Below, piece after piece: positions 43,151-48,984 of a stretch of DNA of 64,000 nucleotides (positions are counted from its first letter, which is position 1; each line of letters starts with the position of its first letter). The notes under the pieces are model-generated. The model made no database searches. It saw only the letters and a list, made by a program, of their open reading frames with translations, and was not told the origin of the DNA. Source of the stretch: an uncultured Lachnospiraceae bacterium. Lineage in GTDB: Bacteria; Bacillota; Clostridia; Oscillospirales; CAG-272. Location of the stretch: the NCBI GenBank assembly GCA_964623895.1, contig CAZUWA010000001.1, forward strand, positions 24,829 to 88,828. The letters run 5' to 3'. Both the position numbers and the translations under genes were made by a program.

Positions 43151-43182
43151 TACCGACTGCCTGCGCGCGGTCGGTATTTTTT
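43151..43182 (+). terminator. Rho-independent terminator
   Basis: Stem TACCGAC/GTCGGTA followed by TTTTTT. Confidence 0.7.
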
Positions 43183-43192
43183 GGTGATAAAA

Positions 43193-44785
43193 ATGAAGAG
43201 AAAAGGGATTAAACGTACCGTTTTGACGATTTTTTGTCTATCCTGCATTGCAGGTGTCATAACGGGTATGTTGATATTTTTGTTTAAAGCGGCATCTTCT
43301 GTCGTTATTGACTTTTCAGGCAAGTTGTATGCCTTTGTGCGTGCGGATATCAATTGGCTTCCGCTTTTTCTTGTAGGTGCTACTGTTGTCGGTCTTTGCT
43401 CTGCGCTGATTCTTCAAAAAGCAAAAGATTGTCGCGGAGGCGGTATCCCAACAGCAGTGGCATCTGTTCGCGCACTCATTCCCATGCGATGGGTAGAGGG
43501 GATATTCGGTGTGTTTTTTGCCGCGATGCTTACTTATCTTGGCGGTGTGCCGCTCGGTAATGAAGGACCGAGTGTTCAGATGGGCACGGCGGTTGGCAAA
43601 GGGACGGCATACCTCATCGGTAAAAAGGGCAGAGCGTATGAACGCTACACCATGACCGGTGGTGCGTGCGCCGGCTTTGCCACGGCAACAGGTGCGCCGT
43701 TGACCGGCATTATTTTTGCACTTGAAGAGGTGCACCGTCGTTTTTCGCCGACCATCTTTTTGGCGGCGGCAACTTCTGTTTTGACGGGGAGCGTCACACA
43801 AGACCTGCTTGCACGCATTTTTTCTGTTGATGTTTCGATGTTTTCCTTTGACTTTTCCGGTAAATTGGCGATCAAAGAACTTCCGCTTGCCGCGTTGGTC
43901 GGTATCCTTTGCGCGTGCGCGGCTTTAGCTTTTACCCTACTTTACCAACGCATTCGTCGTATTGTGAATCGACTTCTCAAAAGGATATCATTTGTGCCGT
44001 TGGTAGCGCTGATATTTGCCGTATGCGCGTTGCTTGGTTTTTTTTCCTCTGATTTAATTGGCTCAGGGCACGCTTTAATACACAGAATTCTTTCAAATGA
44101 AACGGTATGGTACATTTTGATCTTTGTCTTTATTCTGCGCGCGATCAGCGTGATCACCGGCAATACCGCTGGGATTACCGGCGGAGTTTTTCTGCCGATT
44201 CTCACATTCGGTGCAATTCTTGGCGCAATTTTGGGAGAAGTTGCATTGACGTTTGGCTTGGTCAGTGCCGAAGGCTATCCGGTTTTGATCGCGGCTTCGA
44301 TGGCTACATTTCTTGCAGTTGCATCACGCACACCGATCACTGCAGTCGCATTTTCTGCGGAAGTGCTCTGCGGAGTAGAAAACGTACTTCCTGTTGCTAT
44401 TTCGGTGGCAGTCGGATATATGGTTGCGGAAATAAGTGGGATCACGTCCTTCAACGATGTTATCATTGAAAGCAAGGTGGAAGCGGAGCATGAAGGCAAA
44501 ATGCCGTTGATCGTTGATACCCATATGACGGTCTGCAACGGTTGCTTTGCGGAAGGGCAGGAAATCAGAGATATTCTTTGGCCGCCGACCTGTACCGTTC
44601 TATCTGTGGTGCATTTTGACAAAACAGCCGGCTCGGCGCTTGCTGTGGGGGATATACTGCATATTCACTATGCGTCATATGAACCGGAGGAAACGCTAGA
44701 TGTACTATACGGTATCCTTGGCGAGCAGGAAGAGATGCGGACAAAAACGCATATCGGCGGTGAAAATCATACCGTACCGGATTAA
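43193..44785 (+). CDS. ClC-family chloride channel/H+-Cl- exchanger with C-terminal TrkA-C-like domain
   Basis: Selectivity motifs CRGGGIP, GNEGPSVQMG and GVFLP. About 10 or more TM helices. Confidence 0.9.
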   Translation: MKRKGIKRTVLTIFCLSCIAGVITGMLIFLFKAASSVVIDFSGKLYAFVRADINWLPLFLVGATVVGLCSALILQKAKDCRGGGIPTAVASVRALIPMRWVEGIFGVFFAAMLTYLGGVPLGNEGPSVQMGTAVGKGTAYLIGKKGRAYERYTMTGGACAGFATATGAPLTGIIFALEEVHRRFSPTIFLAAATSVLTGSVTQDLLARIFSVDVSMFSFDFSGKLAIKELPLAALVGILCACAALAFTLLYQRIRRIVNRLLKRISFVPLVALIFAVCALLGFFSSDLIGSGHALIHRILSNETVWYILIFVFILRAISVITGNTAGITGGVFLPILTFGAILGAILGEVALTFGLVSAEGYPVLIAASMATFLAVASRTPITAVAFSAEVLCGVENVLPVAISVAVGYMVAEISGITSFNDVIIESKVEAEHEGKMPLIVDTHMTVCNGCFAEGQEIRDILWPPTCTVLSVVHFDKTAGSALAVGDILHIHYASYEPEETLDVLYGILGEQEEMRTKTHIGGENHTVPD

Positions 44786-44854: not shown

Positions 44855-45643
44855 TTAAGATAATAACGCTTTATCGTTGAGTGCTTCTCCGTTTTCCGAG
44901 AATTTTTTGATCAAGAACTCAACGGTCAGGTTTTTCTTTTCCTCGCCAGATATATCGTAAATGATCCTACCGTTGTTCATCATGATCAACCTGTTTCCGT
45001 GTTTGATGGCATCTTGCATGTTGTGTGTGATCATGAGTGTCGTCAGGTTGTTTTCGGTAACGATCCGATCTGTGATCTCCAACACTTTTGCTGCGGTCTT
45101 GGGATCAAGCGCTGCAGTATGCTCATCGAGAAGTAACAGCTTTGGGTGATTCATAGAAGCCATCAGTAGAGTCAATGCCTGCCGTTGACCGCCGGAAAGA
45201 AGTCCGACTTTGCTCGTGAGGCGTGTTTCCAGTCCCAACCCCAACTGTTTGAGTAATTCAGCATATTCTGCACGTTCTTTTTTGGTAATACCCCACGCCA
45301 ACCCTCTGAATTTGCCACGGCGTTTTGCAAGTGCCAAGTTTTCATCGATCTGCATGTCTGCGGCAGTACCAAGCATTGGATCTTGGAACACCCGCCCCAA
45401 AAATTTTGCTCTCTTGTATTCCGGCTTGGCGGTGATATCAATGCCGTCAACCAAAATCTTTCCACTGTCGATCGACCAAACGCCTGCGATCGCATTAAGC
45501 ATGGTCGATTTTCCTGCACCGTTTCCTCCGATGACGGTGACAAAATCGCCGTCATTCAAAGTAAGCGAAAGGTCTGAAAGAGCGAGCTTCTCATTGATCG
45601 TACCGGGGTTAAAGGTTTTGGTGATATTTTTTAATTCAAGCAT
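44855..45643 (-). CDS. ABC transporter ATP-binding protein
   Basis: Walker A GGNGAGKST, signature LSGGQRQ, Walker B LLLLDEHTAALD. Confidence 0.9.
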   Translation of the reverse strand: MLELKNITKTFNPGTINEKLALSDLSLTLNDGDFVTVIGGNGAGKSTMLNAIAGVWSIDSGKILVDGIDITAKPEYKRAKFLGRVFQDPMLGTAADMQIDENLALAKRRGKFRGLAWGITKKERAEYAELLKQLGLGLETRLTSKVGLLSGGQRQALTLLMASMNHPKLLLLDEHTAALDPKTAAKVLEITDRIVTENNLTTLMITHNMQDAIKHGNRLIMMNNGRIIYDISGEEKKNLTVEFLIKKFSENGEALNDKALLS

Positions 45644-46535
45644 CCTGTTTTACCTCCAGCTGTTTTTTCTTTTTGAAATATTTGCTCTTGAGATAAGGAA
45701 TTGCCAAGAAGATCGCCACAACAAGTGCGGAGAACATCTTCAAAAGGTCCGGGTCCAGTCCAAGACTGATGATGACTTGATAGATAACATAGTAGATGAT
45801 ACCGCCTGCCAGTACGCTGATCAGACGGATGGCGAAATTGCGGCTGATTTTTGAGAAGAAGGCATCGCCGATGATGACTGCGGCAAGTCCGATGACGATC
45901 GCGCCTCTACCCATGTTGATGTCAGCAAAACCCTGGTATTGACAGAGCAGTGCACCGGAAAGTGCAACAATGCCGTTTGACAGAGCAATGCCGATCACCT
46001 TATTCATCCCGGTATTGATGCCCTGCGCGCGACTCATTGCGGCATTGCAGCCTGTTGAACGAATCGAACAACCGCGTTCAGTGCCGAAGAACCAATAAAG
46101 AAAAGCGATTAAAATGATGGAAAAAACAGCAATGACACCGATCGACTGATACACCTTCATAGAAGAGAGCAGAACCGTAAAATTGCGAGAAGATACCGGA
46201 ATATTCGCTTTGCCCATGATCTTTAAATTGGCAGACCACAGCATCAACTGCGTTAAAATACCGGAAAGAATGGGTGGAATGCCCAAAATTGTATGAAAAA
46301 GTCCTGTTATCAAGCCGCAAATAATGCCTGCCAGTGTTGCAAGCAAAATGGCAAGGTACACATTGACTCCGGATGTCAATAGCACTGCACATACAGCGGC
46401 ACCGGTACAGATAGAACCGTCTACGGTAAGATCGGCAACATCAAGGATCTTGAAGGTGATGTACACCCCGATCGCCATAATGCCCCAGATCAGCCCTTGT
46501 GCGACAGCACCGGGCAAAGCGTTGAGTAAACTCAT
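45636..46535 (-). CDS. ABC transporter permease
   Basis: Polytopic 299-aa protein that overlaps the ATPase start by 8 nt. Confidence 0.85.
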   Translation of the reverse strand: MSLLNALPGAVAQGLIWGIMAIGVYITFKILDVADLTVDGSICTGAAVCAVLLTSGVNVYLAILLATLAGIICGLITGLFHTILGIPPILSGILTQLMLWSANLKIMGKANIPVSSRNFTVLLSSMKVYQSIGVIAVFSIILIAFLYWFFGTERGCSIRSTGCNAAMSRAQGINTGMNKVIGIALSNGIVALSGALLCQYQGFADINMGRGAIVIGLAAVIIGDAFFSKISRNFAIRLISVLAGGIIYYVIYQVIISLGLDPDLLKMFSALVVAIFLAIPYLKSKYFKKKKQLEVKQDA

Positions 46536-46608
46536 TTGTCGTTTCCTTTCTAATATACAGAGAGGGAGCAGTGCCCCTTTATGAACAGAGCACCGCTCTC
46601 AATCTCTT

Positions 46609-47571
46609 TTACTTTTCAATAGCAGTGTAACCTTCGGGAACGAGAATGCCCAATTCTTCGCACATTTCTGCATTGTACAGTTTGGTGGCAGTGGCGTAAC
46701 CGATTGGCATTTCCTCAATCTTTGCTTCGCCCTTTAAGATCTTTGCAGCCATCTCGCCGGTAGCATAACCGAGGTCATAGTAACTAATGGATAGAGTTGC
46801 AATGCCGCAACCGGTGCAGATGCCCTGTTCGCCTGCGATCAGCGGAATCTTCGCCTTGCGCACTTCGTTACCGATGGTCTCAGCGCAAGTTGCCGCGGTG
46901 TTATCGGTGGGAACATAAAGTGCATCGGAATTTGCAACTGCCGCGGCGGCGATTGTTGCAATATCGTTCGAGTCGGAGAAGGGATATTCGGTTACAGTCA
47001 GACCTTTTTCTTTGAGATAGTTCTTGACGGCATTGACCTGATATTTGGAGTTTGGTTCACTGGAGCAGTAAATGATACCGATTTTCTTAGCGGTCGGAAC
47101 GAGGTCAATGATCATCTGTGCCTGTTCATCGAGCGGAGCAAGGTCGGAAGTACCGGAAACATTTCCGCCGACAGTGCCATTGAAGTCGCTGATATTGAGT
47201 GCGACACCATATTCGGTAATGGATGTACCAAGGATCGGAATGCTGTCTGTTGCATTGTAAGCAGCTTGCAGGGCAGCGGTCGCATTTGCCATGATCAGAT
47301 CATGCTTTTTTGAAACAAAACTGGTGCAGATGGTCGTGCACAGTGCAGGATCGTTGGAAGCGTTCTGGTCGTCGAATTCCACATTTTCTTCGCCAAGAAT
47401 GTCCTTAAGTGCTTGTTTGAAACCTTCCGTTGCCTGATCAAGGGCAGGGTGTTGAACGAGTTGGCAAATGCCGACGGTGTAGACCTTTTTCTTTTCGGTG
47501 CAAGAGGTAAACGTGCTTACTGCTGTCAGCAACGTGATGCAGGCAAGGATCAAACTAATTGTTCTTTTCAC
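46609..47571 (-). CDS. ABC transporter substrate-binding lipoprotein (ABC_sub_bind / PF04392-like class)
   Basis: GTG start behind AAGGAG and lipobox FTSC. The sequence VYTVGICQLVQHPALDQATEGFKQAL...DDQNASND is typical of this family. Confidence 0.8.
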   Translation of the reverse strand: MKRTISLILACITLLTAVSTFTSCTEKKKVYTVGICQLVQHPALDQATEGFKQALKDILGEENVEFDDQNASNDPALCTTICTSFVSKKHDLIMANATAALQAAYNATDSIPILGTSITEYGVALNISDFNGTVGGNVSGTSDLAPLDEQAQMIIDLVPTAKKIGIIYCSSEPNSKYQVNAVKNYLKEKGLTVTEYPFSDSNDIATIAAAAVANSDALYVPTDNTAATCAETIGNEVRKAKIPLIAGEQGICTGCGIATLSISYYDLGYATGEMAAKILKGEAKIEEMPIGYATATKLYNAEMCEELGILVPEGYTAIEK

Positions 47572-47640
47572 GGTGATTTACTCCTTTTATGAATAAAATA
47601 AAATGAAATTTATATTGACCGCCTTCGAAAGACGGAGAAT

Positions 47641-47911
47641 AACAAAAAGTCTCTGTGCACTCATTACAAGCGCACAGAGACGACGATGATCGGCGTGTTA
47701 CCACTCTGCTTTACGGCTTTTTTACAAAAACCGCCTTATCGGGCAAAATTGTCCGCGCTTTAACGGGCGCACCGGCGAAAGGACTTTCTTCCTTCGCGGC
47801 TTGCGGAGTGTAATTCATTTCTTCTTCTCCGGCAGGTCACACCGACCCCTGCCTCTCTTTGGGAGGTAGCAAAGAAACTACTGCGTTCCGTTCATTGCTT
47901 TTAAAAATATT
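47641..47911 (-). promoter_or_regulatory. T-box riboswitch leader (tRNA-sensing transcription attenuator) controlling the ABC importer
   Basis: Read on the minus strand, the leader carries the AGTA-type element CAGTAG, an AG bulge AGAGAG, the distal loop GGTGTGA and a specifier region GAAUUACAC. It also has the T-box sequence AGAGTGGTAACACG (47692-47710) and the terminator GTCTCTGTGC...GCACAGAGAC + TTTTTG (47641-47682). Confidence 0.85.
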
Positions 47912-47917
47912 GATATT

Positions 47918-47946
47918 ATTCTAACATGCCGAAACACATTTGTCAA
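47918..47946 (-). promoter_or_regulatory. Sigma-A promoter of the T-box leader
   Basis: On the minus strand: TTGACA (47946-47941), a 17-nt spacer, then TAGAAT (47923-47918). Confidence 0.65.
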
Positions 47947-48194: not shown

Positions 48195-48262
48195 TGAGCT
48201 TTGCAATGCAAAATTCATGATCACAATTTGTGCCGTTGAAAGACGGTGGGATGGAGATGACG

Positions 48263-48529
48263 ATGAAGGTCAAAAGCGGATTTGTTGTTCATACTGTCGG
48301 CGGTGAAACGGTTGCAGTCGCTTCGGGAGAACTTGCAATGGAGTTTAACGGAATGGTTAAATTGAAAGGAACGGGTGCGTTCCTTTTTGAGCTTCTTCAG
48401 AATGATATCACCGAAGAGGAGCTTGTGACAAGGTTGGCTGAGGAATACATCGTGGATGTTGCAATCGCAAAACGAGATGTGCGCGCGTTCTTGGCGAGCC
48501 TTGAAAATGCAGGATTGATCGAGCAATGA
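48263..48529 (+). CDS. PqqD-family protein (RiPP recognition element-like peptide chaperone)
   Basis: The C-terminal pattern KLKGTGAFLFELLQNDITEEELVTRLAEEYIVDVAIAKRDVRAFLASLENAGLIE is the PqqD/RRE winged-helix signature. The start is ambiguous (48251, 48257 or 48263). Confidence 0.8.
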   Translation: MKVKSGFVVHTVGGETVAVASGELAMEFNGMVKLKGTGAFLFELLQNDITEEELVTRLAEEYIVDVAIAKRDVRAFLASLENAGLIEQ

Positions 48530-48984
48530 ACAGATCGGTGTCTTTTGAAGACAAAAGGACTTTTCTTTCAAAGAATGGTTTTTACCTCTCCACACCGGAA
48601 GGGAACAGTATGTTTCCTTTTGTAAAAGGACGCAAGGATTCGGTCGTGATACTGCCTGTTAAAAAAGAAATACGGCGTCTTGACGCTATTCTTTATGAAC
48701 GGGCGGACGGAAACCATGTTTTGCATCGTGTTATTGGCAGGGATGGCGATTGCTATATTGTACGGGGGGACAACTGTTATTACAAAGAGTTTGTGATACC
48801 CGAACAGATCATCGGTGTCCTTTCGAAAGTCTACAGAAACGGAAAAAAAGAAAAAGACGTGAATGGACGTGCGTATCGCTTTGCCGTTATGGTTTGGAAC
48901 ATTCTCTATCCGTTTCGTTTTGTTGGACATGCCGTTTTGCAGATCCTTCGGCGGCTTAAACGATTTTTGATTGGAAAAAAATAA
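48526..48984 (+). CDS. S24/S26-family peptidase with Sec11/SipW-type (S26B-like) Ser-His-Asp layout
   Basis: GNSMFP (Ser), VLHRVIG (His) and IVRGDNCYY (GDN box). There is a C-terminal hydrophobic helix and no N-terminal TM. ATGA-coupled to the PqqD gene. Confidence 0.75.
   Translation: MNRSVSFEDKRTFLSKNGFYLSTPEGNSMFPFVKGRKDSVVILPVKKEIRRLDAILYERADGNHVLHRVIGRDGDCYIVRGDNCYYKEFVIPEQIIGVLSKVYRNGKKEKDVNGRAYRFAVMVWNILYPFRFVGHAVLQILRRLKRFLIGKK

Follow-up and report, generated by a model that had tools for sequence, protein, structure and literature searches.

A probable tRNA-Tyr-specific T-box riboswitch ahead of three ABC importer genes in an uncultured Lachnospiraceae bacterium

Within a 64,000-nucleotide stretch of DNA from an uncultured Lachnospiraceae bacterium (contig CAZUWA010000001.1 of assembly GCA_964623895.1; the whole stretch is hereafter called the window), three contiguous genes on the minus strand encode the parts of an ATP-binding cassette (ABC) importer, and the leader in front of them contains a T-box riboswitch (Table 1). 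The genes specify a substrate-binding lipoprotein of family PF04392, an ABC permease (PF02653) and an ABC ATPase (PF00005), in agreement with an earlier reading made from the letters alone (the sequence-only reading), which had placed a PF04392-type importer downstream of this leader. The binding protein carries a signal peptide, and its lipobox cysteine (Cys24) is invariant among relatives. From the RNA and protein evidence set out below, we conclude that the leader is very probably an intact, ordinary class I (transcriptional) T-box riboswitch that is specific for the tyrosine transfer RNA (tRNA-Tyr) and belongs to this three-gene operon. For the tyrosine assignment of the T-box itself our confidence is high. 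Coordinates are window positions, and ranges written in descending order run 5' to 3' on the minus strand.

The T-box leader and its operon

We scanned the whole window against all Rfam families, and a single match emerged: the T-box family (RF00230) at 47904–47673 on the minus strand, with 104.2 bits compared to a gathering score of 93 (E = 6.4e-22). The match spans the full length of the covariance model (positions 1–219 of 219), and score, E value and model coverage together place it far above chance. The structural output of the scan also positions a UAC triplet in the specifier columns. The T-box that the sequence-only reading had proposed on the minus strand of 47946–47641 is thus confirmed by this match and by covariation in related leaders.

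Transcription signals frame the leader on both sides. The predicted promoter TTGACA-17-TAGAAT is present, with TAGAAT at 47923–47918, and it is accompanied by a TG dinucleotide (47926–47925) that makes the -10 element an extended one; in total it matches the consensus at 11 of 12 positions. At the other end, the strong terminator foreseen ahead of the lipoprotein gene is a stem of 14–15 base pairs (bp) at 47681–47649 (-24.3 kcal/mol when folded alone) followed by UUUUU, and the gene begins with a GTG start codon at 47571, downstream of an AAGGAG ribosome-binding site.

Between these signals, Stem I is built in the order of a basal helix (GC/GC, with UGA in the kink-turn (K-turn) region), a CGGA/UCCG helix, the specifier loop, a GUUUCU/AGAAAU helix, the AG bulge and the distal stem-loop. 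The elements CAGTAG, AGAGAG and GGTGTGA that had been named for Stem I all lie on the minus strand where they were placed, and the threading by eye of GUUUCUU onto AAGAAAU holds as well, since the two strands (47878–47872 and 47823–47817) are complementary. Both motifs of the distal platform (AGAGA and GGUGNRA) are invariant or almost so in an alignment of 11 leaders described below; AG bulge and distal loop would form the platform for the tRNA elbow. The 5' strand of the K-turn has UGA. Two small departures from consensus, one in the 3' strand of the K-turn and one in antiterminator helix A2, are described below.

Table 1 Features of the leader and operon, in window coordinates (aa, amino acids; nt, nucleotides)
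Feature	Position	Strand	Basis
-35 hexamer TTGACA	47941–47946	-	promoter scan, motif check
Extended -10 TG-T-TAGAAT, 17-nt spacer from -35	47918–47926	-	promoter scan, motif check
T-box leader	47673–47904	-	RF00230 full-length match
Stem I	47799–47898	-	covariance model, covariation, motif check
AGUA, 5' half of specifier-loop S-turn	47879–47882	-	covariance model, motif check
AGAGAG (AG bulge)	47853–47858	-	covariance model, motif check; AGAGA invariant in 11-leader alignment
Distal loop GGUGUGA	47837–47843	-	covariance model, motif check
Specifier loop 3' side GAA-U-UAC-A-C = GAAUUACAC	47808–47816	-	covariance model, alignment, motif check
Specifier codon UAC (Tyr)	47810–47812	-	covariance model, alignment; conserved purine A at 47809
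Stem II (CGAAGG...CCUUUCG)	47776–47796	-	covariance model, RNAalifold, motif check
Stem IIA/B region CCGGUGCGCCCGUUA	47761–47775	-	covariance model, RNAalifold, motif check
Stem III	47714–47735	-	covariance model, covariation: 9 of 9 helix pairs covarying among relatives
T-box sequence AGAGUGGUAACACG	47694–47707	-	covariance model, motif check
Antiterminator: helix A1, 7-nt bulge UGGUAAC, helix A2	47674–47709	-	covariance model, folding
Intrinsic terminator + UUUUU	47644–47681	-	terminator scan, folding
Ribosome-binding site AAGGAG	47581–47586	-	motif check
Substrate-binding lipoprotein, 320 aa, PF04392 201.6 bits	46609–47571	-	Pfam
ABC permease, 299 aa, PF02653 93.2 bits	45636–46535	-	Pfam
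ABC ATPase, 262 aa, PF00005 100.6 bits, 8-nt overlap with permease gene	44855–45643	-	Pfam

The switch region contains the two competing structures. The T-box sequence (AGAGUGGUAACACG, 47707–47694) was found as predicted, with its UGGU (47703–47700) lying in the 7-nt antiterminator bulge UGGUAAC and complementary to a tRNA 3' end of A73-CCA. The 5' arm of the terminator is also the 3' arm of the antiterminator, so that terminator and antiterminator, having one strand in common, are mutually exclusive. Folded alone, the antiterminator forms helix A1 (GCAGAG/CUCUGU), the bulge and helix A2, at -8.9 kcal/mol. The terminator is therefore far more stable, as expected of a switch that needs tRNA to hold its antiterminator. 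A minimum free energy fold of the complete leader was non-canonical except for the terminator and is uninformative on the T-box architecture. Between the terminator U-run and the ribosome-binding site we additionally observed a 7-bp hairpin (CCGUCUU-UCG-AAGGCGG, 47620–47636, minus strand) that is not followed by a U-run; a similar hairpin of changed sequence occupies the same place in a related locus (L081, introduced below).

For comparison across relatives, we scanned GTDB representative genomes and obtained 80 loci (labelled L001–L080) whose binding proteins are 59–69% identical to that of the window. The source genomes all belong to Clostridia and are for the most part those of uncultured Oscillospiraceae, Ruminococcaceae, Lachnospiraceae and Acutalibacteraceae. 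Leaders scoring above the RF00230 gathering threshold were found in L002, L006, L010, L015, L019, L026 and L035, and weaker ones in L024 (90 bits), L028 (81 bits) and L014 (73 bits). Metagenome contigs supplied two further leaders, L081 (protein 72% identical; GCA_965354035.1) and L083, which is from a near-identical strain.

Covariation was assessed in a MAFFT alignment of 11 leaders (the window and 10 relatives). Without a supplied structure, RNAalifold recovered the four helices of Stem I as well as stems II, IIA and III, antiterminator helix A2 and the terminator, with compensatory changes in 40 of 53 pairs. When a structure including the antiterminator was imposed, standard pairing was seen in 91.2% of cells, compared to 34–51% when the 3' partners were slid by 1–3 columns. 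In this structure 36 of the 51 pairs had changed on both sides, and none of 500 shuffles reached the observed values. The helices thus covary among orthologous leaders, a check that the sequence-only reading had named for its own proposal. Substitutions in the terminator arms of L083 likewise retain pairing through G-U and A-U changes.

Specifier codon and substrate of the importer

In the RF00230 alignment, the specifier loop reads a-CGCAGUA on its 5' side and GAAUUACA-c on its 3' side. The covariance model assigns UAC to the three codon columns and A47809 to that of the conserved purine, while a47886 and c47808 are treated as insertions flanking the CGGA/UCCG helix. The alignment of leaders agrees with this register, with UAC-A at columns 102–105 in 10 of the 11 sequences (the window and nine of the 10 relatives). 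In all, 11 related clostridial leaders have UAC-A at the corresponding place in the loop. Seven relatives are particularly informative (L002, L006, L010, L014, L015, L026 and L028): UAC-A there directly abuts the U of an A-U pair that closes the helix, so that UAC can be read without ambiguity by the canonical rule of codon, purine, helix. The window, L019, L024 and L081 have an A-C or A-A mismatch where this pair would close the helix, which accounts for an extra nucleotide after UACA in these four leaders. L081, the closest relative with a leader, has a loop (GAAUUACAC-UCCG) identical to that of the window, and the helix above the loop differs in sequence.

A reading from the cmscan columns alone was rejected, as in L024 and L026 the specifier loop is placed one nucleotide out of register. 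The register rests instead on the homologous alignment, the helix boundaries and L081. The proposal of a UAC tyrosine codon followed by a purine is accordingly upheld by the model columns, by nine of the 10 related leaders and, as described next, by a Glu/Tyr pair in the binding protein.

The nearest solved structure to the binding protein is that of Clostridioides difficile CD0873 (6HNI/6HNJ/6HNK; E = 1.6e-55, 40% identity over 288 aligned residues). Its closed crystal form contains tyrosine, and in thermal-shift measurements tyrosine alone among the 20 amino acids stabilized the protein, with a dissociation constant (Kd) of 94 uM (Bradshaw et al., PMC6816091). The authors ascribe this choice to two pocket residues: Glu263 bonds the phenol hydroxyl of tyrosine and is replaced by Ala in VC_1101, which binds Phe, and in SP1069, which binds Trp, and Tyr279 excludes Trp, its counterpart in SP1069 being Gln284, whose smaller side chain leaves room for the indole (PMC6816091). 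E248 and Y264 of the window protein align without gaps to Glu263 and Tyr279 (chain residues E242 and Y258, offset 21). In these columns 3LFT, a Trp binder, shows A220 and Q236, corresponding to Ala268 and Gln284 (offset 48). The numbering offset is equal for both residues within each protein, which confirms the mapping, and both E248 and Y264 are invariant in 80 of 80 orthologues.

Among the NCBIfam models, the TrpX equivalog NF041285 matches the binding protein best. An identity as TrpX was rejected, because the score of 243 bits lies under the cutoff of 390 and because Tyr264 and Glu248 occupy the positions of SP1069 Gln284 and Ala268; given the score, the protein is a TrpX paralogue and not TrpX itself. 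RNA and protein evidence therefore point independently to tyrosine, and the operon most likely imports this amino acid. The claim that the leader predicts the substrate of the 44855–47571 transporter finds support here, as the UAC codon and the CD0873-type Glu/Tyr pair agree.

Several observations weigh against the reading of a tRNA-Tyr-specific leader before a tyrosine importer, and we take them together with the alternative explanations on which they bear. Three are of a general kind. The A73-CCA end fits bacterial tRNA-Tyr, and A73 is common to many tRNAs; the pairing of UGGU with A73 thus fails to separate tyrosine from many other tRNAs. Scans found no tRNA gene in the window and no tRNA-Tyr gene in the 60 fetched relative loci that they covered. 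CD0873 is not among the listed T-box-controlled units of C. difficile (PMC11477304).

A first alternative accepts that the leader senses tRNA-Tyr and holds that the main substrate of the transporter is Phe or Trp, or several aromatic amino acids, in which case no one substrate could be predicted from the T-box. The family does include the Trp binder 3LFT and the Phe binder 3LKV, TrpX is the best NCBIfam model, and the affinity of CD0873 for tyrosine is moderate by thermal shift (PMC6816091). One related leader (L035:3153-3383) moreover has UUC-C as its specifier, a codon for Phe with a pyrimidine after it, although its binding protein keeps the Glu/Tyr pair. This could reflect a specifier switch without a change of the pocket, a broader specificity, or an assembly error. 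Against a different aromatic substrate stand the distance of the TrpX score from its cutoff and the pocket itself, in which the residue that accommodates Trp (Gln284 in SP1069) is Tyr and the position that is Ala in Phe and Trp binders is Glu, as in the tyrosine-specific CD0873. In L026, furthermore, a Phe-type leader drives an Asp paralogue and a Tyr-type leader drives the Glu form. We consider this alternative unlikely.

A second alternative retains the T-box and changes its codon. The extra C47808 separates the conserved purine from the CGGA/UCCG helix, and if the codon is counted strictly as the three nucleotides before this last unpaired base, it becomes ACA (Thr). L019 and L024 also have an unpaired nucleotide after UACA, A-C-A fills the codon columns when L024 is aligned to the Rfam model, and posterior probabilities in the specifier loop of L026, the other leader with a shifted placement, are only ~0.5–0.6. 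The homologous position argues otherwise. In the seven relatives in which UACA abuts the A-U closing pair, an ACA codon would precede a pyrimidine, whereas the canonical reading there is UAC plus A; and in the window, L019 and L024 the extra base faces a 5'-strand A at the position of that A-U pair, which indicates a mismatch and no shift of register. The covariance-model alignment of the window, as noted, inserts a47886 and c47808 and keeps UAC-A in place. Specifier codons also show a strong bias to C at the third position, and the binding protein belongs to a family that binds aromatic amino acids and has the tyrosine-specific Glu. A threonine specifier is thus very unlikely.

Whether the T-box is a decaying or non-functional remnant has to be weighed on different grounds. 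Its score is just 11 bits over the gathering threshold, the 3' strand of the K-turn (region 47799–47804) reads CAAGC, with AA in place of the consensus GA (GAGC, also in most relatives), and antiterminator helix A2 contains a C-U mismatch (47683/47693). When all 80 GTDB loci were scanned with Rfam, furthermore, only 10 had a T-box directly upstream of the gene for the binding protein, so that the link of leader and transporter is lineage-restricted, the leader having been lost or never gained in most orthologues. Conversely, all functional modules are present and in register, consensus promoter and terminator are intact, and the AA variant of the K-turn strand recurs in L014 and L028. The terminator substitutions of L083 keep pairing and therefore indicate purifying selection on the structure. 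We give the remnant explanation very little credence. Finally, an AUG specifier (47818–47816, Met), which lies close to the loop and which the sequence-only reading had listed as a second option, can be dismissed with near certainty, as A47818 and U47817 are both paired at the end of the AGAAAU/GUUUCU helix, where they make up its last two pairs, and the conserved GAA S-turn takes its G from G47816. Nor is the triplet conserved, since relatives read GAGAA, GCGAA or UCGAA at the same positions.

If the leader is indeed a tRNA-Tyr-specific T-box, we would expect it to work as follows. Transcription would start ~7 nt downstream of the extended -10 element, and Stem I of the nascent RNA would capture tRNA-Tyr by pairing of UAC (47812–47810) with the GUA anticodon and by stacking of the AG-bulge/distal-loop platform on the tRNA elbow. 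With uncharged tRNA-Tyr, the free A73-CCA end would pair with UGGU (47703–47700) and stabilize the weak antiterminator against the terminator, and as long as the antiterminator is held, RNA polymerase would read through into the operon. With charged tRNA-Tyr, the terminator (47681–47649) would form and transcription would stop ~70 nt before the ribosome-binding site. Since the operon is most likely a tyrosine importer under a tRNA-Tyr T-box, tyrosine starvation would induce the cell's own tyrosine uptake system.

Tandem units and possible specifier switches in relatives

The distribution of T-boxes in this transporter family is patchy and suggests repeated gain or loss. None was found in the closest GTDB representatives (L001, L003 and L004), nor in L082, whose protein is 72% identical. 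Repeated gain or loss of T-boxes was noted by Wels et al. for other transporters (PMC2494555).

One relative, L026, contains two tandem units (L026:1811-4472) with two T-boxes that are 93% identical. In the first unit, the T-box has UUC-A (Phe), and the PF04392 gene behind it encodes a protein with Asp at the position of CD0873 Glu263. In the second, a T-box with UAC-A (Tyr) precedes a Glu-type paralogue, followed by permease and ATPase genes. This arrangement appears to stem from a recent duplication in which the specifier was switched. The Asp-for-Glu variant also occurs as an upstream tandem paralogue, without a T-box, in three further loci (L017:2228-3193, L060:2354-3322 and L061:2421-3359), and these Asp-type paralogues may constitute a Phe-preferring subfamily. 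Two other loci (L072:2737-2987 and L062:2722-2969, both minus strand) have a divergently oriented T-box with a UGG (Trp) specifier that drives a distant, TrpX-like PF04392 paralogue (~30% identical). In both, the UGG T-box unit adjoins a Tyr-type binding-protein gene that itself lacks a T-box.

A tentative proposal, possible in our view yet somewhat doubtful, is that leaders and PF04392 proteins of this gut and rumen clade of Clostridia co-diversify by tandem duplication, with a change of one base from UAC to UUC retuning the leader from tRNA-Tyr to tRNA-Phe and a change from Glu to Asp at the position that binds the phenol retuning the pocket. L026 would be the clearest case, since its nearly identical UUC-A and UAC-A leaders drive Asp and Glu paralogues that share one permease and ATPase. 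If the proposal is correct, the leader in the window would be the tyrosine branch of a small, evolvable module made up of sensor and receptor, and an uncharacterized Phe-specific subfamily would be defined by the Asp-type paralogues.

Upstream and divergent from the leader (48230–48984, plus strand) lies an open reading frame (ORF) for a PqqD-like protein (PF05402, 99 aa), overlapped within the same interval by a 152-aa ORF that has no Pfam match; the two may be related to ribosomally synthesized and post-translationally modified peptides. Downstream, a gene for a CLC-type chloride channel (43181–44785, plus strand) converges on the operon. Unrelated riboswitches flank several of the relatives, namely a ZMP/ZTP (L027:1780-1859), a PreQ1-III (L043:264-365), a lysine (L056:12-181) and a Moco riboswitch (L079:7564-7701).

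Comparison with known systems

Regulatory codon and pocket residues agree, and both suggest that tyrosine is what this ABC importer from an uncultured gut or rumen Clostridia lineage, which has no other annotation, takes up. Their agreement supports the transfer of this annotation across the PF04392 proteins of the clade, and is consistent with T-box specifiers remaining a reliable guide to specificity in the PF04392 family. The result helps annotation and reveals no new mechanism.

In a survey by Wels et al. in 2008, the only transporters under Tyr T-boxes in the genomes examined were of the NhaC and NSS types, and ABC systems were found under T-boxes for Trp, His, Ile, Met, Asn and Asp (PMC2494555). 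In the accessible literature, which did not cover TBDB and RegPrecise, we found no PF04392 system reported to be preceded by a Tyr T-box, so that an earlier description is possible. Mechanism and architecture themselves are without novelty and belong to a known kind of system.

The Bacillus subtilis tyrS leader, also of family RF00230, is the founding Tyr T-box. It resembles the leader in the window in being a transcriptional T-box with a UAC specifier and UGGU in the antiterminator bulge, and in its arrangement of Stem I (with AG bulge and distal loop), the further stems II, IIA/B and III, and competing terminator and antiterminator. In the work of Grundy and Henkin, the UGGU of tyrS is reported to match A73 of tRNA-Tyr. 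Unlike tyrS, the leader in the window controls an ABC importer and not a tyrosyl-tRNA synthetase gene, and it differs further in the extra unpaired nucleotide after the conserved purine and in the non-consensus 3' strand of its K-turn.

The trpXYZ systems of Streptococcus suis and Streptococcus pneumoniae share the PF04392 binding protein, the PF02653 permease, the ATPase, the operon order and a T-box leader (PMC9382623), and experiments in S. suis demonstrated that the T-box responds when amino acids are limiting (PMC9382623). The statement in the sequence-only reading that T-box regulons had served to name trpXYZ is consistent with this literature, and trpXYZ does belong to the PF04392-type family. 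For the hisXYZ-type systems that the reading also named, the paper on hisXYZ (PMC9413887) gives no Pfam family. In contrast to the operon described here, trpXYZ has a UGG specifier where the window has UAC, its binding protein has Ala and Gln at the specificity positions where the window protein has Glu and Tyr, and the leader in S. suis, at 461 nt, is by far the longer of the two (PMC9382623).

The C. difficile CD0873–CD0875 tyrosine importer differs in that CD0873 has an adhesin role unrelated to the window locus and is only 40% identical to the window protein, whose tyrosine binding is predicted. Like the window protein, however, CD0873 is a lipoprotein, and it is the closest solved homologue, with its Glu263/Tyr279 pair conserved as E248/Y264.

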